Below, one piece after another: positions 1,804 to 10,615 of a stretch of DNA of 64,000 nt. The translations under genes were made by a program, and so were the position numbers. The stretch lies in the NCBI GenBank assembly GCA_021787985.1, contig JAJYLG010000008.1, positions 2,821-66,820 on the forward strand. The letters are read 5' to 3'. Numbering within the stretch: position 1 is the stretch's first letter; every line of letters begins with the position of its first letter. A model generated the notes under the pieces. The model had not been told where the DNA came from and did not search any database. It worked only from the letters and a program-made list of their open reading frames with translations. This DNA is from Chloroflexota bacterium. GTDB lineage: Bacteria; Chloroflexota; Dehalococcoidia; DSGV01.

Positions 1804-2358
1804 GTGCTCAACGCATGTGGACCAGATGACCCTCGCGAGCCGCGGGTGCTCGTCGCCGGCATGGGGACCGTCCTGCGGAAGGACGACGGGTTCGGCGTGG
1901 CGGTGGTCCGTCACCTGATGGAGACCTGGCGGCCACGTCCCGCGAACGTCACGCTGGTCGACTGCGGGGCGGCTGGGATCAGCCTCGTGCAGGAGCTTCT
2001 GGACGGATACGACGCCCTGATCGTGGTGGACGCGGTGCGGCGCCACGGGCGTCCGGGAACGATCTACGTGCTGGAGCCGCGGGTCCAAGCGCTGATGGAG
2101 CGGGATGATTCCCTGCGCCAAGCGTCTCTCACGGACGCCCATCTGATGGAGCCGGGCCAGGTGTTCGCCGTCGCACACGGTCTGGGTGTGTTGCCGCCGT
2201 ACGTGCGCGTGGTGGGCTGCGAACCGGCCGAGGTCGATGAGGCCGAGATCGGCCTGTCGGCCAGCCTGCAGCACGCGCTCCGCCCGGCGGCGCACCGCGT
2301 CCGCGCGCTGGCGGAGGAGCTGGTCGCGCCGCCGCGGAGCGGTTCGTCCTCGGAGTAG
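1804..2358 (+). CDS. Hydrogenase maturation endopeptidase (HyaD/HybD family)
   Basis: RVLVAGMGTVLRKDDGFG, IVVDAV..G.PGTIY, DAH and VVGCEP motifs. The start (GTG 1804) is uncertain. Confidence 0.85.
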   Translation: MLNACGPDDPREPRVLVAGMGTVLRKDDGFGVAVVRHLMETWRPRPANVTLVDCGAAGISLVQELLDGYDALIVVDAVRRHGRPGTIYVLEPRVQALMERDDSLRQASLTDAHLMEPGQVFAVAHGLGVLPPYVRVVGCEPAEVDEAEIGLSASLQHALRPAAHRVRALAEELVAPPRSGSSSE

Positions 2359-2387
2359 CGCTGCGCGCCGCGACCAAGAACGGGCGG

Positions 2388-2408
2388 CGGCCGGTCACTG
2401 ACCGGCCG
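2388..2408. terminator. Inverted repeat between convergent genes (possible bidirectional terminator)
   Basis: CGGCCGGTCA-C-TGACCGGCCG is a perfect 10-bp inverted repeat. It has no U-tract. Confidence 0.45.
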
Positions 2409-2423
2409 GAGCTGTGGGTGGCG

Positions 2424-2801
2424 CTAACGCCCGAGGTGCGAGGGACAGGGCTCGCCGGCGTGCGCGGGGTCATGGCACCAGCACCCCGGGATGCACTCGC
2501 CGTGCGCCAGCCGGGTCATGTCACGAAAGGTATCTCGGAAGCGCATCGCCCCCTCGCGCTCGCCGCGTTCGGTCAGTCGATAACGCTCGTCCTCGCGTTT
2601 CAGGTCACCCTCTCGGGCGAGGCGGTCCATCTGTGCCTCGACTACGGCGACGTCCCCGGCAAGGAAACCGGCCAGCCCCTGGGCGTTCACCTCGCTGGCA
2701 AGCCCCTCGCCGCGAAGCCAGTACATCGCTTCCAGGATCTCGTCCCGCCAGAACAGGTCGTCGAGCGCGCCGTTGTCGTGCATCCGGCGTTCGCTCCTCA
2801 C
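2424..2801 (-). CDS. Hydrogenase-associated winged-helix-like protein with a C-terminal His/Cys cluster
   Basis: Helical core (FWRDEILEAMYWLRGEG...YRLTERG) and tail HGECIPGCWCHDPAH...CPSH. It overlaps the stop of the upstream protease, consistent with coupling. Confidence 0.7.
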   Translation of the reverse strand: MRSERRMHDNGALDDLFWRDEILEAMYWLRGEGLASEVNAQGLAGFLAGDVAVVEAQMDRLAREGDLKREDERYRLTERGEREGAMRFRDTFRDMTRLAHGECIPGCWCHDPAHAGEPCPSHLGR

Positions 2802-3424
2802 GGAAGGGGCGCGCCGGCGCGGGCGCGCTCAACCAGATCGCGCACGACGATCTGCGCGCGTTGCAGCGCCGCCTCGGCCGCCCGGCTGAGATCCGGACCC
2901 CAGTGCTGATCGGAGGGCTGTACCTCGACCGTCAGGGTGCGCCGCGGGAGCGCGTCGAAATGGTCGAGGATCATCAGGAGGTTCTCGAGGCTCACGACGC
3001 CGGTGACCGCCTCGCCGATACGCCGCTGTAGCTCGTCCGCCGATGGACGCCTCCCCCGCCACGGAGCAACAGTCACCGTGCCGGGTTCGAGGCCCCGGTC
3101 GACCGCGGCGAGGAATACCCCCACGCTGAAGCGGGCGACAGCCTGCAACTGGAACAGGACGTCGATCGGGCCGTAGCTCAGGTCTGCCACGACCACCTCT
3201 GGAGGCCAGTCAAGCCGCTGCAAGCGCTCGATCAGCAATGGGCCCGCGGACATGTCACGCAGATTCGTGTAACCCACTCCGCCCACCAGCACTCGCCGCC
3301 CGTCCCCGCCGGAAGAGTCGGTCGCTGGCGGCAGCGAAGACACGTCCGGTGCGAGCGGCTCGCCCGGGCTGAGGATGGCCGCGAGCGGGTTGAAGGTGCG
3401 CTCGATACGTCCGGCGGAGGGCAT
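2798..3424 (-). CDS. Divergent hydrogenase maturation protease-like protein
   Basis: RVLVGGVGYTNLRDMSAGP, DLSYGPID and VEVQP are HyaD-like. ATG 3424 lies 4 nt after the large-subunit stop. Confidence 0.75.
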   Translation of the reverse strand: MPSAGRIERTFNPLAAILSPGEPLAPDVSSLPPATDSSGGDGRRVLVGGVGYTNLRDMSAGPLLIERLQRLDWPPEVVVADLSYGPIDVLFQLQAVARFSVGVFLAAVDRGLEPGTVTVAPWRGRRPSADELQRRIGEAVTGVVSLENLLMILDHFDALPRRTLTVEVQPSDQHWGPDLSRAAEAALQRAQIVVRDLVERARAGAPLP

Positions 3425-3428
3425 GTCC

Positions 3429-5303
3429 CTATTCTTCCTCCAAGAGGCAGGCGCAGGTGTTGACCTCGCGGACGATCGCCCTATCGCCGGCAAAGACGTG
3501 GGTGGTGCAGGGCATGCACGGGTCGAAGCTGCGGATGGCACGCAGGATGTCGATCCCCTTGAAATCCTCCTGGCGGTCGAACCGCTCGATGACCGGCGTG
3601 CTGAGCACCGCTTCCTCGTAGGGTCCCGGATTCCCCCAGGGGTCCCGCGGCGAGGCGTTCAGGGTGGACGGGGTGATGATCTGGTAGTTGGTCACCACTC
3701 CCTTGTCCATGACGAGATGGTGGGTGAGGTAGCCGCGGCCGGCGCCCCAGAATCCGGCGCCGAGCCGCTGGTCGTTGGGCACGCGGTAGTCACGGCTTAC
3801 GGCAACGTCGCCGCGCTTCATCAGATCGTACGCCGCCATGAGGTTGCTGAGCGCCACCAGTGCCGTGTAGGCCACGGCGTACGCCCGCGCGCGGTTGCGC
3901 TCGATGGCATTCCACTCGTCCGGGATGTGCCACTCGAGCTCCGTCTCCGGCAGCCTGCCCTTCGGCACGACCATCTTGAGACTGTGGCCGGTGGACTCGA
4001 TGAACGGGTTCGCCGGCAGTTTCTGAGCCGCGGCCGTGGTCCACATCCGCACGTACACGCCGGCCTCCACCGCCACCCGGTCCCAGCGCGGCGCCGTGTC
4101 CCAGGTGTACTTCTCCTTCCAGCTCCGGCCGACGGGCTTCGGTCGTGTCTCCTTGTTCCACGGATGGAACGGGCTGAGCGGGTATCCGGCGGGATCCGTC
4201 GGGAATTTCTGCCCGCTCCAGTCTTCGTAATAGGAGTGCTCGACGAACTCCTCGAGGCCCGCGTTCATGGCGTGAAGGTTCGTCGTGACCAGCTCGCCGT
4301 CGCGCACGACGCCGGGGGTGTTCCATCGTCGCTCACCCCACTGGGCCGCGTGTTCGTAGACCGCGTCGTATGCCTCGTGGTGGTCCCAGATCCCGGCGTC
4401 GATCAGGTTCTTCGGTCGTGCGCCCACCTGGCGAAAGCGCGGCTCGACCGCGTAGAGGAAGTCGTACACGTCGTCCCACAGGGGCGCGACCTTCTTGGCG
4501 TAGTCGAGGATGTCGAACAGGCGGGACTGGTACTCGTTGAAGACGCGAAACGATATTGTCGTGCTGATGCCGCCGGGCACGATCGTCTGGGGGTGTGGGT
4601 ACTTGCCCCACACCAGCACCGTCATCTCCCGGGCCTTACGCGTGATCTCGAGCGCTTCCAGGTATAGGGAGCCGCTCAGCGGGTTGAGCGCCGCCATGAT
4701 GTCACCGATCGTGCCGAATCCGTGCACGGCGGCGTGCGGCGCGGCGGTGTGCTCGGCGCGCTCCCAGATCTCGGGGTTAGTGGCGCGAATCGCGGACTCG
4801 GAGTAGTCCGGTCCGCCGAGCAGGAAGAGGTGCAACGGGTTGTCGTAGAGGAACTCGGCCGTCTGCCCGAGATTGCGCACGACGATGCCCATCGGCGGCG
4901 GCTGCACACCGAAGGCCATCTCGATCGCCTCTGCCGAGCAGTTGGCGTGGACCCCACCGCAGACGCCGCACGCGCGGCTGCTGATGAAGATCGCGTCCCG
5001 CGGATCGCGCCCCTTGAGGATGACCTCGTAGCCGCGGAATAGGGTCGCCATCGCGTGCGCGTCGAGCACACGGCCCTCGTTCAGGTCGACGACCGCGTGG
5101 AACGCCAGGGCGCCGGCCACGCGCGTCACCGGGTCGATGCTCACCTCCTGGATGTGGCCGTTGCGGCGCAGCAACTCCTCGATGCGTTCCTGCTGGGTCG
5201 CCACCGTTGTCGTCGCGCGAACTCCATATGGGTCGGCGACGTTGGCCTTGAGGCGTGCTCTGCCGGACTCGTCGAACTCAATCGGCAGGTTCTTGAAGCA
5301 CAT
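3429..5303 (-). CDS. hylL: [NiFe]-hydrogenase large subunit, group 1 (probably 1l/Hyl)
   Basis: L1 motif SRACGVCGGVH, L2 motif DPCMPCTTH followed by a cleavable C-terminal extension, and a GGAGGAG RBS. The subgroup and symbol are inferred from gene architecture. Confidence 0.9.
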   Translation of the reverse strand: MCFKNLPIEFDESGRARLKANVADPYGVRATTTVATQQERIEELLRRNGHIQEVSIDPVTRVAGALAFHAVVDLNEGRVLDAHAMATLFRGYEVILKGRDPRDAIFISSRACGVCGGVHANCSAEAIEMAFGVQPPPMGIVVRNLGQTAEFLYDNPLHLFLLGGPDYSESAIRATNPEIWERAEHTAAPHAAVHGFGTIGDIMAALNPLSGSLYLEALEITRKAREMTVLVWGKYPHPQTIVPGGISTTISFRVFNEYQSRLFDILDYAKKVAPLWDDVYDFLYAVEPRFRQVGARPKNLIDAGIWDHHEAYDAVYEHAAQWGERRWNTPGVVRDGELVTTNLHAMNAGLEEFVEHSYYEDWSGQKFPTDPAGYPLSPFHPWNKETRPKPVGRSWKEKYTWDTAPRWDRVAVEAGVYVRMWTTAAAQKLPANPFIESTGHSLKMVVPKGRLPETELEWHIPDEWNAIERNRARAYAVAYTALVALSNLMAAYDLMKRGDVAVSRDYRVPNDQRLGAGFWGAGRGYLTHHLVMDKGVVTNYQIITPSTLNASPRDPWGNPGPYEEAVLSTPVIERFDRQEDFKGIDILRAIRSFDPCMPCTTHVFAGDRAIVREVNTCACLLEEE

Positions 5304-5327
5304 GGCGTCTCCTCCCCGTGTCCCGCG

Positions 5328-5621
5328 CTAGGGGGCTGTTCGCCCGGGCGCACCAGGCGGCAAGCGGTTGTTCAGCGACCGCAGGTTGGCAGTCAGGCCG
5401 TCGGCGCCCGTCGCGAGCGCTTCCAAGCCGCGCCGGAGCGGCGGCACCTGCCCCTCGAGGAGAGCGGTCTGACGGTCGATAGCCGCGACCCCCCAGACGA
5501 TCTTCGCGGCGGTAAGGCGGATGCGCTCCAGGGAGCGCCGTATCCGGTTCAGGGCCAGCGCCAGCAGCGCGAGGAAGAGAAGGAGGAGCACGGCCGAGAG
5601 GATCGCCAGGATCACCGTCAT
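5328..5621 (-). CDS. Single-pass membrane protein with coiled-coil tail (HylTM-like #4)
   Basis: N-terminal hydrophobic helix (VILAILSAVLLLLFLALLALAL), amphipathic tail and RBS AGGTGG. The ATG overlaps the upstream stop. Confidence 0.75.
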   Translation of the reverse strand: MTVILAILSAVLLLLFLALLALALNRIRRSLERIRLTAAKIVWGVAAIDRQTALLEGQVPPLRRGLEALATGADGLTANLRSLNNRLPPGAPGRTAP

Positions 5622-5923
5622 CTTGTCCCACCTTCGTTCACCAGGCCCGCGGTTCTCAGCCTCGCGCCCAGGTCGACGGCGACCTGCGCGATTCCGTCCG
5701 CCCCGACGCCGAGCCGCTGGGCGGTGCTCGCCAGGGGGCCGAGCTCCGGGAGCGCGGCCGAGTTGCGGCCGATGCCCTCAATTGAACGGAGCGCCGTTCG
5801 AGCCTGCAGGTCGATGGCTCGCAGGTGCACGACGATTCGGGTCACCATCAGCACCGCCACCAGCGTCAGCGGGAGCGCGGCCAGCAGCGCCACGAGCCAG
5901 ACAATCGCCGCCGTTAGGTTCAT
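5618..5923 (-). CDS. Single-pass membrane protein (HylTM-like #3)
   Basis: N-terminal TM helix, L..I...A...L.SI.GI..N pattern and RBS GAGGAG. Confidence 0.75.
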   Translation of the reverse strand: MNLTAAIVWLVALLAALPLTLVAVLMVTRIVVHLRAIDLQARTALRSIEGIGRNSAALPELGPLASTAQRLGVGADGIAQVAVDLGARLRTAGLVNEGGTR

Positions 5924-5933
5924 ATGCCGCTCC

Positions 5934-6230
5934 TCACGCTGCCGCCGAGCGGCTGCTGCCGGCGGCGTCCGGCTCGCCGCCGAGATCTCCGGACGTGGCC
6001 TCGAGGTCGGAGGCTACGCGACCGAGGGCCGCGTTCACCTGCCCGAGCTGCTCGTTGAGAGGCCGCGTCACATCTTCGACCACCGCCATCAGGCGCGAGA
6101 TCCGGACGAACGAGTCGCCTACCCTGCGCAGGTAGACGAGGATCGTCACCAGGCTGACCGCAAGCACGAGCGCGACAACGACCGCGTACACGAGCGAGAT
6201 GATCTGGACTACGAGGATGAACGTGTCCAC
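5934..6230 (-). CDS. Single-pass membrane protein (HylTM-like #2)
   Basis: GTG start after GGAGG, a TM helix, then LRRVGDSF.RISRLM.VVEDVTRPL...LGQVN. Confidence 0.75.
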   Translation of the reverse strand: MDTFILVVQIISLVYAVVVALVLAVSLVTILVYLRRVGDSFVRISRLMAVVEDVTRPLNEQLGQVNAALGRVASDLEATSGDLGGEPDAAGSSRSAAA

Positions 6231-6242
6231 AGCATCCTCCGG

Positions 6243-6539
6243 CTAGGACGGTCCCGGCCGCTGTGCCGCCAGCTTGTCATCGAGGGCGGCGGTCGCCGCG
6301 GCGATGGCAACCACCGCGGCGAGAATGCGGCCCGCGGTCTGATTCGTCTGCGCAAGGAGTGGGATGCTGGTCGTGTTCGACGCGATGCCCTTGCCAGCCT
6401 GCCACACCTCGAGGGCGTGGCGATCGATTCGCTCGGCCGCGCGCCAGATCGCGATCAGCAGCACGGCAACGACCAGCAGCACGACGACCGCGATGATGAG
6501 GATGATCCACCAGAACTGCGGGATGGTAGCGTCGGGCAT
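6243..6539 (-). CDS. Single-pass membrane protein (HylTM-like #1)
   Basis: RBS AGGAGG, TM helix FWWIILIIAVVVLLVVAVLLIAI, then RI...A.EVW..GKGIASNT. Confidence 0.75.
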   Translation of the reverse strand: MPDATIPQFWWIILIIAVVVLLVVAVLLIAIWRAAERIDRHALEVWQAGKGIASNTTSIPLLAQTNQTAGRILAAVVAIAAATAALDDKLAAQRPGPS

Positions 6540-6588
6540 GTGGGATTCCTCCTCCTCCCGTCCCGACCGTTCGCTCGCGCGAACGGTC

Positions 6589-7830
6589 CTACTCCGGCTT
6601 GGCGGCCGTGCCGTGACGCTGGCGCCGGTTGTAGAGGAACTCCAGCGTCCGGTCCACCACGGGCAGCTCGTACTCGGCGCCCCAGCCGCTGGGGATGCGC
6701 TTCTCCCGGTCCCAGCGGGTCGAGTGATTGCGGTCTCGCTGGGTCACTCTGCGAAGCGCGCGCACCAGCGCCCCGCCGGTCTTCGAGATGCTGCTGGACA
6801 CGAGGACGCCCGGTGCAGCCTTGTAGAAGGGCGCGAACTTGTCCGGGAAGCCCGGCATGGTGCAGCCGATGCAGACGCCCCCCGCGTGCATGCAGCCGCC
6901 GACGCCGTTGATGGCGCCTCGTGAGGTGATGTTGCAGTTCACCACGGGGCCCCAGCAGCCGATCTCGACCAGGCACTCGCGGTCGCCGGGGGAGTCGGCG
7001 AAGGTGCCCTCCTCGTAGTAGCCCGCGCGATTGCACTGGCGGTGGACCGTCTCGCTGAAGAGCCAGGCTGGTCGTCCCAGCTCGTCGAACTCCGGCACCG
7101 GTCCGAGGCCCTGCAAGAACAGCAGCACGGCGGCGACCGTCTCCGTGAAGTTGTCTCCGACCGGCGCGCAGCCCGGGATGTTGACGACCGGCAGGCCGAG
7201 CGCGCTGCGATACTCGGGTCCCAAGAAGTCCATCACACCCATCGCGCCCGTGGGATTGTGGTAGGCGGCGGGGATGCCGCCCCACGTGGCGCAGGTGCCG
7301 ATGGCGATGACCGCCGCCGCGCCCGGGGCCATGCGCTTGAGCCACGTCGCCGACGGCACGGCGCGGGCTTCACCTCGTGCCTCGTCGAGCTCCTCGCCCA
7401 CCGCCGACCAGTAGCCCTCACCGGCTCGCGCCTCGTCGGCAACCGAACCCTCGTAGACGACTACATAGGGGACGCCCAGCGTGCCTTCCGCCGCGCTGCG
7501 TGCGGCCCGCATGAACGGCTCGCCTGCCTCGACGTTGATCGCCGTGTGATGGAGGAAAACCTGCGGCAGCCCCGGCAACGTGCCCAGCAGCAGGTCCTCG
7601 ACGCGCGGCGCGGTCGCCCCGAGGACCGCGATGCTGCATCCGTCGCAGCTCATCCCCGCCAGCCAGAAAACGTGGACGGCGGTGTACGGACCGAGCAGGC
7701 TATCCTTGCCAAGCCGCTCCCGCGCCTGCCGCGCGATCTCCTCGGTGGTCGCGCCGGCAATGTTGCCGACCATCCCCATGCCGCGGCCCGGTGCGACCCC
7801 GACGGACGGTTTCTCCGTGGTCACCATCAC
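6589..7830 (-). CDS. hylS: [NiFe]-hydrogenase small subunit without a Tat signal
   Basis: Fe-S ligand motifs SCDGCS, GTCATWGG, PGCAP, HRQC, CL..IGC.GP..NC and GGC...GGVCIGC..PGFPD. RBS GAGGAGG. No RRxFLK motif. Confidence 0.9.
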   Translation of the reverse strand: MMVTTEKPSVGVAPGRGMGMVGNIAGATTEEIARQARERLGKDSLLGPYTAVHVFWLAGMSCDGCSIAVLGATAPRVEDLLLGTLPGLPQVFLHHTAINVEAGEPFMRAARSAAEGTLGVPYVVVYEGSVADEARAGEGYWSAVGEELDEARGEARAVPSATWLKRMAPGAAAVIAIGTCATWGGIPAAYHNPTGAMGVMDFLGPEYRSALGLPVVNIPGCAPVGDNFTETVAAVLLFLQGLGPVPEFDELGRPAWLFSETVHRQCNRAGYYEEGTFADSPGDRECLVEIGCWGPVVNCNITSRGAINGVGGCMHAGGVCIGCTMPGFPDKFAPFYKAAPGVLVSSSISKTGGALVRALRRVTQRDRNHSTRWDREKRIPSGWGAEYELPVVDRTLEFLYNRRQRHGTAAKPE

Positions 7831-7857
7831 CCGTGCTCCTCCTCCCCCCGCCGGCCG

Positions 7858-8643
7858 TCAGCGCGCGACTTCGCGCGTCAGCGTCTCGACCAGCGCGCCG
7901 ATAGCCCGCACCGCCGGCGCCGACGGCCGATAGTCAATCGCCGATCGATTCTCCCGATCGGCATCTTGAACGGACTCATCGAACGGGACCACCCCCGCCA
8001 CCGCCACGCCAAGGCGCTGGCTGTACTCGCGGATGGCGGCCTCGTCCCGTGGCGAACGGACCTTGTTCGCGACCGCGTGAACGCGAGGGAGACCCAGCCC
8101 GCGCGCCAGCGGCACCGTTCGCCCCATCGTCTCCAGCGCTCGGTAGTAGGGCTCCGTCACCACCAGCAGCGTGTCCACGTTGCGCACGGTGCCACGGCTG
8201 AGGTGCTCGATGGACGCTTCCATGTCGAGGATCGTCACCTCGTTGCGCGACGAGGACGGCAGCTCCGCGATCACGCCACGCACCGTGGCGTGCTGTCCGC
8301 ACAGTCAGCCCTTGCCCGCGCCCAGGAGGCCGGTCATAGAGAGCACTCGCATCCCGGCAGGACCGACCACGCCGTACTCCGACACGATCTCGTCGAAGGG
8401 ACGCCGCAGCCGCAGGCTGGCCCGCCCTTCTTCGTCTACCAGCTCGTCGAATATCGCTTCTCGGGGGACGCGGCGCAGCGCGCTGATCTGTTCTGGCGCC
8501 AAGCCGAGGGCCGCCGCCAGATTCGGATTCGGGTCATCGTCGAGGGCGTTGACGCGGTAGCCACGTTCGGCGAACACGCGCGCCATCGTGGCCGCCACCG
8601 TCGTCTTGCCGGCGCCGCCCTTCCCCGCGACGGCGATTCTCAC
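7858..8643 (-). CDS. cooC: CooC/AcsF-type Ni-insertion ATPase with in-frame UGA (predicted selenocysteine, U113-L-C115)
   Basis: The two ORF-track pieces (8305-8745 and 7858-8283) are one reading frame separated only by TGA 8305-8307. Motifs GKGGAGKTT, DDDPNPNL and DMEASIEHLSRGT are present. GTG start at 8643 follows GGGAGG, giving 261 codons. Confidence 0.85.
8272..8307 (-). other. Candidate bacterial SECIS element
   Basis: UGA, then 12 nt, then the perfect hairpin CACGCCACG-GUG-CGUGGCGUG (8272-8292). The apical loop starts with G about 20 nt after the UGA. Confidence 0.65.
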
Positions 8644-8817
8644 GCCCCGCTCTCCCTCCCAGCACGGCGAGCGATCATCGCTCCGGCCATGCGCTGGCGT
8701 GCGAGCGGCTCTCCCTCCGCTCCACCCTTCGCCCGGGTAGTCCACGGCCGCCCCGCACGCTGGGCGGTCAGGCGGCCGATGAGATGGACAACCGGGCGCC
8801 TCCCTCGGGATGCTCGC

Positions 8818-8846
8818 ATGTTAGTGCGGGATTTCCCATATTTCAA
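8818..8846 (-). promoter_or_regulatory. Sigma70-type promoter for the cooC-hydrogenase operon
   Basis: TTGAAA (8841-8846), 17-nt spacer, TAACAT (8818-8823), in a locally AT-richer patch. Confidence 0.6.
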
Positions 8847-8929
8847 GCCAGGGTCGGAGGACCGCCGCCTGCCCGCCGACTCCGGAAGCCGGCGGCGTTG
8901 GCCCGTACTCTCGTGCGGCTCGAAGCGAC

Positions 8930-10615
8930 TCAGCTTGCACCGCGGATTTGCGTTCCCACCGGCTGTCCCGTCACGAAGACTTGCTTGAAGCAGCCGTTCG
9001 TGCCGCTGCCGTACCAGCCATGGGCGAAGTACCAGGCATCCAGCACCGCCGCACGGTAGATCCAGTAGCCCGTCGGATAGTACAGGTCGATCGTGGGCAG
9101 GTCTTGGGCGAGGATGACCTGCATCCGGTCGACGATGGCCTTGCGCGCGGCCTCGTCGATGGTCGAGAGCTGCTGCGCGGCAAGGCTGTCGAACGTCGGA
9201 TTGGCGTAGCCGTGGACCCGGGTGAAGCTCTTGCTCTTGCTGTGACTGTCGAACTTCGCGCGCAGGCCATCGGGGTCGCCTCCCAGCCCGCCGAAGCCGA
9301 CCAGCGCAAGGTCGTAGCGACCCTGGGCCGCCGCGCTGTCGCGCGCTTGCCCGTCCATGACCTGCGGCGTGACCTGGATCCCGGCCGCTTTCAGGTAGGA
9401 CTGGAGCAGCTCGGCAACACGGATCGGATCGCTGTTGGCCAGGATCAGTGGGAAGCGCAGCGGGGTGCCCGTCGCGGTCTCCCGGACTCCATCGTGGTCG
9501 CGGTCGAGATAGCCGGCGTCGTCGAGGAGCCGCTGCGCCTTTGCCGTATCGAATGGGTACTGTGGCACCCGGGGGTTATGCCAGGGGCTGGTCGGCGCGA
9601 CCTGGCCGGGATTCCCGACCACCCCCTGGCCCTGGAGGAAGCGCGCGACCAGGTCGTCCAAGTTCAACGCGTAGCCGACCGCCTGCCGGAATCGGACGTC
9701 GGCCAGCGGACCGCCCTTCGCCATGTTGAAGAACAGCGCGAACGTCCATTCCAATGGCGAGCTGATTGTCTTGAATCTGTTGTCTCGCTTAAACGAATCG
9801 AGGACGCCCGGCGGGGCCGCCTGGTTGAACCCGAGGCCGCCGGCGTCGATCCCACCCTGCTGCAGCGCCAGCAGCTCGTTGGGGGCGGGCACCTGTTCGA
9901 TCCGCCGCACGTAGGGACGGCCGAGGAAGAAGCTATCGTTCGCTTCGAACAGATAGCTGCCCTGTGCTTCGTTGTACTGCTGCAGGCGATATGGCCCGGT
10001 TCCGACCGTGGCGCTCGGTGCGTCGAACTTGGTCGGGTCACTGACCGGTTCCCAGACGTGCCTGGGCAGGATGAACACCGACGTGGCGATCGACGGGATC
10101 AACGGCGCGTAGGGCTCCTTGAGGCGCAATCGGATCGAGGTCTCCGTCACCTTCTCGGCACCCGCGACCACCTGCAGGCTAGACGCCCACCATGGGGTCG
10201 GGTGCGCAGCCAGGTACTCGAAGGTGAAAACCACGTCGTCGGCCGTGAACGGTTGGCCGTCCTGCCACTTCACATCCGGGCGGAGGCTGAAGGTCCAGGC
10301 GCGCCCTCCCTGCTCCGGCGCCCAACTGGTCGCGAGCCACGGTATGACTCCGCGCGAGTCGTGCCACGCGAGGGTGTCGAAGACGTAGCTCGTGTTCACG
10401 TGTCCCGGACCGCGCGAGAACATGAACGGCGTGGGTCGCCCGTAGTCCCCGCCCGCCAGTCGCACTGTCGGCCGAGGGGCGGCCGTCGCGGTCGCGGTCA
10501 CGGCCTGCTGTGCCCCGCCGCTGCACGCATTGAGCAGCCAGGGGGCGGCGGCGACGATCCCGCCGGCGCCGGCCGCCCGCAACAATGCTCGCCTGGTCAG
10601 ACCTCGACTCGCCAT
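8930..10615 (-). CDS. ABC transporter substrate-binding protein, family 5 (Opp/Dpp/Nik), Tat lipoprotein
   Basis: TRRALL twin-arginine motif, lipobox LNAC, and LRPDVKWQDGQPFTADDVVFTF and VGTGPY family 5 motifs. Confidence 0.88.
   Translation of the reverse strand: MASRGLTRRALLRAAGAGGIVAAAPWLLNACSGGAQQAVTATATAAPRPTVRLAGGDYGRPTPFMFSRGPGHVNTSYVFDTLAWHDSRGVIPWLATSWAPEQGGRAWTFSLRPDVKWQDGQPFTADDVVFTFEYLAAHPTPWWASSLQVVAGAEKVTETSIRLRLKEPYAPLIPSIATSVFILPRHVWEPVSDPTKFDAPSATVGTGPYRLQQYNEAQGSYLFEANDSFFLGRPYVRRIEQVPAPNELLALQQGGIDAGGLGFNQAAPPGVLDSFKRDNRFKTISSPLEWTFALFFNMAKGGPLADVRFRQAVGYALNLDDLVARFLQGQGVVGNPGQVAPTSPWHNPRVPQYPFDTAKAQRLLDDAGYLDRDHDGVRETATGTPLRFPLILANSDPIRVAELLQSYLKAAGIQVTPQVMDGQARDSAAAQGRYDLALVGFGGLGGDPDGLRAKFDSHSKSKSFTRVHGYANPTFDSLAAQQLSTIDEAARKAIVDRMQVILAQDLPTIDLYYPTGYWIYRAAVLDAWYFAHGWYGSGTNGCFKQVFVTGQPVGTQIRGAS

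Follow-up and report, generated by a model that had tools for sequence, protein, structure and literature searches.

Four single-TM HylTM proteins of two alternating families as a candidate membrane stalk of a Tat-less, group 1l-type [NiFe]-hydrogenase in a Chloroflexota bacterium

The window analyzed here is a stretch of 64,000 nucleotides from a Chloroflexota bacterium (GenBank JAJYLG010000008.1, positions 2,821 to 66,820), in which a [NiFe]-hydrogenase operon is read from the minus strand. At the head of the operon lies the gene for a CooC-type P-loop ATPase (cooC, 7858..8745), which contains a single in-frame stop. A sigma-70-like promoter match on the same strand (8818..8846), the sole such match in the interval 2300–9300, lies upstream of it, and no minus-strand terminator-like site was found inside the operon. 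The small-subunit gene hylS (6589..7830; 413 aa; PF14720, 3.8e-22; PF01058, 3.4e-19) and the large-subunit gene hylL (3429..5303; 624 aa; PF00374, 1.4e-72) are accompanied, on the same strand, by genes for a hydrogenase maturation endopeptidase (2798..3400; TIGR00072 at 48.6 bits, the cut-off being 47.45) and for a conserved 125-aa protein with a weak winged-helix match (2424..2801), which is found after hylL in almost every related locus. Between hylS and hylL, in the same orientation and translationally coupled, lie exactly four genes for small proteins with a predicted transmembrane (TM) helix: TM1 (6243..6539, 98 aa, ATG start), TM2 (5934..6230, 98 aa, GTG start), TM3 (5618..5923, 101 aa, ATG start), and TM4 (5328..5621, 97 aa, ATG start), all on the minus strand. 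The cassette is separated from hylS by 49 nt and from hylL by 24 nt; its internal gaps are 12, 10, and −4 nt, the start of TM4 overlapping TM3 by ATGA. An earlier note on this DNA had placed four genes of 97–101 aa, each with its own ribosome-binding site, at 5328–6539, and both points hold exactly, since a GGAGG-like Shine-Dalgarno sequence lies 5–8 nt upstream of each start.

That these are real genes and not chance open reading frames in GC-rich DNA follows from their base composition, from the selection acting on them, and from their orthologues in 54/54 related loci. The GC3 values of TM1–TM4 (0.84–0.88) approach those of hylS and hylL (0.89–0.90), with GC2 at 0.43–0.51, and comparison with the closest locus gave dN/dS ratios of 0.26–0.44, read with the dS values saturated. 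As a separate observation, TM1 and TM2 share a reading frame, which would allow a fusion via TAG read-through to be folded as a pseudo-multimer. This route was rejected, since linking the cytoplasmic C-terminus of the first protein to an N-out TM helix would invert the second helix and make the model uninformative.

HylS carries no RRxFxK twin-arginine motif, and its C-terminal tail is short, ending soon past the FLY motif. HylL is the single [NiFe] large subunit in a 95.6%-complete genome. Its best PDB match is the group 1h enzyme 5AA5 (E 3.3e-152), it shares 60–83% identity with the large subunits from loci in which five TM genes are interposed, and it clusters in the tree with loci showing the 1l hallmark gene order. 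The enzyme is thus of the group 1h/1l type, and probably 1l. TM1–TM4 are its HylTM accessory proteins, which agrees with the earlier suggestion of HylTM-type genes serving a Tat-less enzyme. No cytochrome b or Rieske gene was found in the operon, and no PF01292 match in the 64-kb window; the genome holds three PF01292 matches on other contigs (C181, C55, and C92), the best scoring 92.6 bits, and the replacement of cytochrome b put forward in the earlier note is conjectural.

Each of the four proteins has one strongly hydrophobic 19-aa N-terminal window, in which the Kyte-Doolittle mean is 3.79, 2.95, 2.73, and 3.20 for TM1–TM4, respectively. There is no Lys or Arg before the TM helix and there are three to five Arg after it, which therefore predicts an N-out/C-in topology for all four. 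The TM helix spans approximately residues 10–31 in TM1, followed by heptads, and residues 5–30 in TM2, followed by a/d heptads, and in all four soluble parts the hydrophobic residues recur with a periodicity of 3.4–3.5 over approximately 60 residues. The AlphaFold2 models, which are of monomers and have pTM values of 0.36–0.38, consist of long helices: residues 6–55 and 60–92 in TM1 (pLDDT 79.8), with the sole break at the NT motif, and a single helix of residues 2–86 in TM4 (pLDDT 83.1). A Foldseek search of the PDB with the TM1 model gave no match. Cys is absent from all four proteins, and no cofactor motifs were found in them; because the only His residues are H41 in TM1 and H33 in TM3, with none in TM2 or TM4, there are no conserved heme ligands.

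Profile comparisons resolved the four proteins into two families, by sequence, arranged in the order I-II-I-II, with TM1 and TM3 as class I and TM2 and TM4 as class II. The TM1 and TM3 orthogroups were joined by hhalign with 99.2% probability (E 1.4e-19) and those of TM2 and TM4 with 99.4% (E 1.5e-21), and profiles of class I and class II aligned collinearly with 94–95% (E ~1e-7). The same division was obtained with HMMs of the five-gene proteins, designated a–e and made from 31 five-gene loci, whose cross-scores group them as {a,b,d} and {c,e}. TM1 is of the ‘b’ type (93 bits), TM2 of the ‘e’ type (50 bits), and TM4 of the ‘c’ type (46 bits); TM3, the most divergent of the four, is of a ‘d/a’ type, with only 23 bits to a and 20 bits to d. 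Conservation is highest in one cytoplasmic stretch, G-K-x-I-A-x-N-T in class I and G-V-R-A-I-E-x-x-T in class II; the invariant residues are W46, G49-K50, I52-A53, and N55-T56 in TM1 and G44, V45, A47, I48, and T52 in TM4. No NCBIfam family matched any of the four proteins. The earlier description of a TM helix followed by a common amphipathic pattern is thus borne out by the hydrophobic windows, the periodicity, and the profile-profile links among all four, but the term “four paralogues” needs refinement: all four are indeed linked, and they are better described as two alternating families than as four equals.

The core positions of the first four heptads were examined in 24 orthologues per protein. 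The d positions are Ile or Val in all four proteins, with the single exception of position 44 of TM3 (Thr/Ala). At the a positions, class I has small residues (A35, A42, G49, and T56 in TM1, and equivalent sites in TM3), whereas class II has L34, L41, L48, and T55 in TM2 and L31, L38, V45, and T52 in TM4. The Thr of the fourth a layer is kept in 24/24, 23/24, 21/24, and 24/24 orthologues of TM1, TM2, TM3, and TM4, respectively. Class II shows a clean a/d repeat across eight to nine heptads, exemplified by TM4 with Leu/Val at a and Ile at d; in class I, the register shifts downstream of the NT motif, and the distal half is possibly not a simple bundle. Of the seven heptad phases, class II has only two that are hydrophobic and class I two to three, the remainder being polar or charged. 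The combination of Leu at a and Ile at d corresponds to the GCN4-pLI pattern, which Harbury et al. in 1993 reportedly found to favor parallel four-helix bundles. Provided that the chains pack in parallel and in register, as this argument presupposes, the matching of large and small residues along a narrow a/d stripe indicates an obligate, tightly packed parallel hetero-oligomer. The four proteins have the sequence features expected of a parallel hetero-oligomeric coiled coil with N-terminal TM anchors, in keeping with the helical bundle proposed in the earlier note.

Related loci with at least 3.3 kb of sequence upstream of hylL all carried such genes in the hyl operon (54/54), in sets of two, four, or five. 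The two-gene form (I + II) occurs in Thermomicrobiales, and, because two-gene and five-gene forms exist, the number of helices can vary. The position of the cassette within the operon varies relative to hylS and hylL, in many loci adjoining cooC, and across the clade neighboring genes frequently overlap (−1 and −4 nt). The tail H-x4-CxxCxxC is present on the ‘b’ protein in 27/35 five-gene loci, and this His/Cys3 motif is confined to the five-gene form; HylS tail length and TM gene number showed no clean correlation. In two phylum samples totaling 502 genomes, a class II match was present in 16, and in 14 of these it lay within approximately 5 kb of a 1l-type hylL; in one of the two remaining genomes the match was weak (E 7.9e-5). 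An array beside coxL was seen in none of the 16. One five-gene array, in another genome, lies distant from any hydrogenase gene. In the genome of the window itself, the TM1 and TM4 orthogroup profiles found no match at E ≤ 0.01 outside the hyl locus. The linkage to hylSL is thus nearly absolute, and at the related loci it is obligatory.

HylTM proteins were named in 2020/21, and an AlphaFold model of 2026 presents them as a membrane scaffold, with the distal cluster placed near the TM region; the five-chain HylTM1–5 model was described as “tube-like” and tied to quinone reduction (PMC13554262). The idea of the earlier note, that of an anchor with a role toward quinone, had thus already been put forward for the five-gene form. 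Like the published proteins, those of the window are small, single-TM, and encoded beside hylS/hylL of a Tat-less, high-affinity-type hydrogenase; they are homologous to the five-gene sets, and a scaffold role is proposed for both. They differ in several respects: there are four genes instead of five, the additional class I gene ‘a’ being absent from the locus and from the genome; the genes run b-e-d-c and not a-b-c-d-e; the ‘b’ protein has no H-x4-CxxCxxC tail; and the HylS tail is shorter.

We consider it probable, at roughly 65%, that TM1–TM4 form a HylTM stalk which ties the cytoplasm-facing, Tat-less group 1l-type hydrogenase to the membrane as a closed heteromeric coiled coil. Each protein would be bitopic, N-out/C-in, with a TM helix of approximately 22 residues continuing into a heptad helix of approximately 60 residues (~90 Å). 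Because the genes are translationally coupled, a 1:1:1:1 assembly may be expected, giving a parallel, in-register heteromeric coiled coil. In its four membrane-proximal heptads, every chain would contribute Ile/Val to the d layers, and the a layers would pair class II Leu with class I Ala/Gly up to a fourth layer of four Thr, resulting in a closed and sterically matched core. The four TM helices together would make up the membrane anchor, and the conserved stretch of both classes, with the distal half of the helices, would probably dock on HylS/HylL. In such an arrangement, the distal FeS cluster may be held at the inner membrane face, where menaquinone could be reduced by it.

The stalk could instead be a substrate channel and not merely a tether, that is, a hollow, hydrophobic-lined tube carrying menaquinone out of the bilayer to an acceptor site beside the distal FeS cluster, at a height of tens of angstroms over the membrane. 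The model for this is HucM of the Mycobacterium smegmatis Huc enzyme (group 2a, PDB 7UTD; PMC10017518), likewise an additional small helical subunit, which forms a coiled-coil stalk of ~90 Å by which a cytoplasmic uptake hydrogenase that tolerates O2 is joined to the membrane in place of a cytochrome b. The cytoplasmic helix of TM1–TM4 is similar in length to the 94 Å bridged by the HucM tube (PMC10017518), the HylTM1–5 model has the tube-like form mentioned above, and the operon encodes neither cytochrome b nor a Rieske protein. In addition, the class II profile resembles designed multi-helix coiled coils and barrels in a PDB profile search, at the level of pattern and not of homology, and the invariant polar layer (Thr with Asn/Glu), which lies approximately 26 residues away from the membrane, might serve as a binding site for a quinone head group. 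Pentameric coiled coils can hold a narrow hydrophobic pore. A tube wide enough for menaquinone, however, needs a broader hydrophobic face than the two phases of class II and the two to three of class I; canonical four-helix coiled coils have no pore, and both two-gene and four-gene forms exist. Since the Leu/Ala matching at a with Ile at d, the Thr layer, and the narrow a/d stripe fit a closed core, a wide quinone tube like that of HucM is disfavored, at least close to the membrane. At the level of sequence, the TM1 and TM4 orthogroup profiles found no Huc chain (7UTD/7UUR/7UUS) in the PDB at E ≤ 10, but designed coiled coils only. HucM is one protein used four times, peripheral and without a TM helix, which lines its tube with hydrophobic residues and scaffolds an 833-kDa octamer, whereas the locus of the window encodes four distinct chains, all of them integral to the membrane, whose a/d core is narrow and whose enzyme could simply sit on the bilayer. 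The comparison with a HucM-like quinone conduit, as made in the earlier note, thus found no direct support, and such a function appears unlikely here.

Two further readings dispense with a structural role in the mature enzyme or with a hydrogenase function altogether. As assembly or targeting factors, the four proteins would have a transient function, for instance in keeping HylS/HylL at the membrane during maturation or in organizing CooC- and protease-dependent metal insertion. The proximity of the mobile cassette to cooC in many loci, the orphan array away from hydrogenase genes, and the lack of Cys and cofactor motifs would suit such a role, which we nevertheless regard as very improbable: a place between the structural genes with translational coupling suggests stoichiometric subunits, and a chaperone would hardly need four distinct chains, each conserved in its own right, with a matched core. 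Nor is [NiFe] maturation through the Hyp system known to require such proteins, which counts against this role. The proteins might finally be generic membrane coiled coils of the DUF948 type (PF06103; YoxC, FacZ) that serve regulation or the envelope and owe their link to the hydrogenase to gene neighborhood only. FacZ is laid out alike, its N-terminal TM helix being followed by a helical part (PMC10914604), some homologues are labeled ‘YoxC’ in IMG, and sub-threshold matches to the DUF948 model occurred in 5/24 TM2 and 7/24 TM4 orthologues (best E 1.7e-5). The model is unspecific, however, with weak matches in 13/14 control genomes, and DUF948 members are stand-alone proteins that do not form arrays. 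TM2 reached 19.2 bits and TM1, TM3, and TM4 no score, the best value genome-wide being 18.4 bits, far below the curated cut-off of 37.2 bits, so that membership was rejected. With the nearly absolute hylSL linkage as well, a mere neighborhood effect is scarcely credible.

The proposed tethering stalk can also be set against other hydrogenases. The cytochrome b subunits of membrane-bound group 1 enzymes (HyaC/HoxZ, PF01292) presumably share its task of linking the distal cluster of the small subunit to the quinone pool, but they are four-TM di-heme proteins, whereas each HylTM protein has a single TM helix and no conserved heme ligands. A further comparison is with the group 1m clusters, in which two single-TM proteins of 82–92 aa, a CooC-type ATPase, and an endopeptidase accompany a high-affinity hydrogenase and recall the two-gene Thermomicrobiales form, although hhmS and hhmL are adjacent there (PMC9561532).

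What is new here is the I-II alternation, the cassette of two, four, or five genes moving within the operon, and the matched core with its invariant Thr layer. A bolder and quite improbable extension would make HylTM a modular two-family heteromeric system whose copy number was reset repeatedly (I-II, I-II-I-II, I-I-II-I-II), with the cofactor-free four-gene form as the sole link between a cytoplasmic high-affinity hydrogenase and menaquinone, and with the Thr layer and the G-K-x-I-A-x-N-T motif, ~40 Å above the membrane, as the quinone head-group site. If true, this would amount to a protein-only replacement of cytochrome b, and the Huc principle would have been invented a second time, independently.

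What had been five uncharacterized TM ORFs can now be put as specific, testable statements about families, a matched core, a Thr layer, and natural variants. The minimal two-gene, the cysteine-free four-gene, and the His/Cys3-containing five-gene forms are such variants, by which a tether and a quinone conduit may be separated, and the core and Thr-layer residues point to mutation targets for the same distinction. H2 scavenging in Antarctic and other desert soils is reported to be dominated by group 1l hydrogenases, and the operon encodes no candidates other than the HylTM proteins for passing the electrons of these cytoplasmic enzymes to the respiratory chain.

This locus carries a cofactor-free, four-gene variant of the already-known HylTM module. 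In the window, a single minus-strand operon comprises a cooC-type ATPase gene (7858-8745), hylS (6589-7830), TM1 (6243-6539, 98 aa), TM2 (5934-6230, 98 aa, GTG start), TM3 (5618-5923, 101 aa), TM4 (5328-5621, 97 aa), hylL (3429-5303), a maturation endopeptidase gene (about 2798-3400) and the gene of a conserved protein of 125 aa that gives no more than a weak winged-helix match (2424-2801). As the earlier note had described, the four small genes encode 97-101 aa and each has its own RBS. These sites are GGAGG-like. TM1 and TM2 lie 12 nt apart, TM2 and TM3 10 nt, and TM3 and TM4 overlap by 4 nt (ATGA); 49 nt separate hylS from TM1, and 24 nt separate TM4 from hylL. Within 2300-9300, the sole promoter-like match precedes cooC, and the operon contains no terminator-like site on the minus strand. 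TM1-TM4 are real genes and not chance ORFs: their GC3 (0.84-0.88) and GC2 (0.43-0.51) resemble those of hylS and hylL, dN/dS against the nearest relative, the hyl locus L002, is 0.26-0.44 (with saturated dS), and orthologues span at least seven phyla.

The cooC-type P-loop ATPase gene is interrupted by one in-frame stop codon (8305-8307); such a gene adjoins the TM cassette in many loci. In nearly all related loci, whatever their architecture, the 125-aa protein is conserved and its gene follows hylL. Beside the operon, the plus strand (522-2358) has two ORFs recognized from sequence alone, one HypE-like and the other a second endopeptidase-like one.

No family for TM1-TM4 was found in Pfam or NCBIfam. 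Their published counterpart is HylTM, and the hypothesis of the earlier note is the one published for the five-gene form. The literature names HylTM genes, which the note calls known but uncharacterised, and a literature search returned no experimental work on any HylTM protein. HylL is the sole [NiFe] large subunit of this Chloroflexota-type genome (completeness 95.6%); its closest solved structure is the group 1h enzyme 5AA5 (E 3.3e-152), with Huc far off (4e-34). HylS of the window's clade ends about 10 residues past a conserved FFY/FLY motif (C-terminus, 6589-6700); most five-gene loci (L020, L075 and others were compared) have 33-49 further residues there, which in the largest clade carry the motif PGR..PG..E..FWG..RPG...DY.

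The hylS, hylL and small TM genes were mapped in 80 loci with HylL 59-83% identical to that of the window, and small TM genes were present in all 54 loci whose sequence extends 3.3 kb or more upstream of hylL. Five genes lie between hylS and hylL in 28 loci (Gemmatimonadota, Acidobacteriota, Chloroflexota and others), four in 10 (the window's clade, Chloroflexota/Thermomicrobiota) and two in 2 (Thermomicrobiales); four genes precede hylS, directly or with cooC between, in 13 (mostly Acidobacteriota) and occupy the opposite strand in one actinomycetotal locus. Because its internal order is constant wherever it is located, the four-gene set moves as a cassette. On the HylL tree, the window belongs to a clade of 11 loci with full support, 10 with the four genes between hylS and hylL and one a truncated contig that bears this same set; in the sister clade the four genes lie upstream of hylS.

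Across two samples of the phylum (201 and 301 genomes), matches to the class II profile (TM2/TM4) at E <= 1e-4 occurred in 16 genomes besides the window's own, and in 14 of these the match lies within ~5 kb of a 1l-type hylL; the other two comprised an orphan five-gene array and a weak match. No array adjacent to CO dehydrogenase genes was observed in these samples. In the window's genome, every match to the TM1 or TM4 orthogroup profile at E <= 0.01 falls at this locus. A complete five-gene HylTM-like array, CPGCPNC tail included, was observed in the same phylum (L093:6643-8279, on G119:C35) flanked by the genes of a LysR-type regulator and of a membrane protein of 554 aa with repeats; the array adjoins no hydrogenase or coxL gene, and the 1h-like hydrogenase (42% identical) and bona fide coxL of that genome are on other contigs.

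The four proteins had been proposed as paralogues; profile comparison bears this out, all four being distant paralogues that divide into two classes, TM1/TM3 (I) and TM2/TM4 (II). Both conclusions follow from cross-scores and profile comparisons. HMMs built for each position (a-e) of the five-gene loci cross-score as {a,b,d} and {c,e}, and the window proteins match b (TM1, 93 bits), e (TM2, 50 bits), a/d (TM3, 23 and 20 bits) and c (TM4, 46 bits). Among the four orthogroup alignments (A3-A6, 24 sequences each), TM1 and TM3 match at 99.2% (E 1.4e-19) and TM2 and TM4 at 99.4% (E 1.5e-21), against 94-95% (E about 1e-7, collinear over full length) for cross-class pairs. The gene order is I-II-I-II in four-gene, I-I-II-I-II in five-gene and I-II in two-gene forms. 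At 50% identity, a library of 1.8 billion proteins yields 629 representatives of class II alone, nearly all of 85-120 aa.

The class I b protein ends in H-A-x-x-C-P-G-C-P-A-C-V in 27/35 five-gene loci (for example, the second TM genes L075:6777-7109, L023:3597-3920 and L017:6720-7049). This His + CxxCxxC tail, for which no mention was found in the accessible published HylTM text, may be a site for a metal or FeS cluster at the stalk's cytoplasmic tip; none of the four-gene or two-gene forms has it, and TM1-TM4 contain no Cys. In four-gene loci, the class II proteins (e.g., L009:7711-7998) usually bear a C-terminal S-A-D-x-H-L motif with a conserved His; window TM4 (5328-5621) has S-L-N-N-R-L instead, and TM2 likewise lacks that His.

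The proposed single N-terminal TM helix is borne out by one very hydrophobic N-terminal stretch per protein (mean hydropathy 2.7-3.8 over 19 residues). Because no K/R precedes it and 3-5 Arg follow it, the positive-inside rule predicts an N-out/C-in topology. No twin-arginine motif was found in the HylS sequence, and the hydrogenase therefore faces the cytoplasm. The common amphipathic pattern was likewise recovered, the soluble parts having a hydrophobic periodicity of 3.4-3.5 over ~60 residues. With orthogroup alignments, AF2 modelled TM4 as a single uninterrupted helix spanning residues 2-86 (pLDDT 83.1) and TM1 as helices 6-55 and 60-92 (pLDDT 79.8); the break between these two has low confidence and coincides exactly with the conserved N55-T56 motif. 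The a/d repeat of class II is clean over 8-9 heptads, and just two phases are hydrophobic; in class I the register shifts past the NT motif.

In the four membrane-proximal heptads, counted among 24 orthologues per protein, the d positions are Ile/Val in TM1, TM2 and TM4 and Ile in TM3, except position 44 (Thr/Ala). The a positions are A35, A42, G49 and T56 in TM1 (23, 23, 24 and 24 of 24), the equivalent 34, 41, 48 and 55 in TM3, Leu, Leu, Leu and T55 in TM2, and Leu, Leu/Ile, Val and T52 in TM4. Thr occupies the fourth a layer in all four proteins (24, 23, 21 and 24 of 24), equally far from the TM helix in each (~26 residues or ~40 A). Harbury and colleagues (1993) reportedly found with GCN4-pLI that Leu at a combined with beta-branched d residues drives parallel four-helix bundles, and heteromeric assembly is classically enforced by large/small pairing within a core layer. 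TM1-TM4 would pack in parallel and in register as an I-II-I-II bundle whose core is closed and whose register is probably set by the Thr layer.

Such a stalk could be a tether or a hollow quinone conduit. In HucM, the only characterised analogue, four copies of the protein build a tube with a wholly hydrophobic lining, and menaquinone is proposed to travel 94 A along it (PMC10017518). TM1-TM4 share with HucM the length scale and an operon without cytochrome b, which the earlier note proposed the stalk to replace; the genome's one clear PF01292 gene (hydrogenase-type cytochrome b; G000:C181:55264-55788, 92.6 bits) is on a contig other than that of its only hydrogenase. The published five-chain HylTM model is termed tube-like (PMC13554262). 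However, profile searches found no similarity of TM1-TM4 to HucM, which has no TM helix, whereas TM1-TM4 are integral membrane proteins with a narrow hydrophobic stripe and polar other faces. For these reasons a conduit appears unlikely, and a tether with a closed core is favoured from sequence features (probability about 0.65). The class II profile also matches, at E 3e-16, designed bundles and barrels of coiled coils, a match that reflects the heptad pattern only.

The earlier note's observation is borne out. Of its proposal of a membrane stalk or quinone conduit, the heptad and TM features stand and the hollow conduit is less favoured; the interpretation is supported in part and largely published already. 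The residue-level predictions make the route of group 1l hydrogenases to the quinone pool more directly testable.
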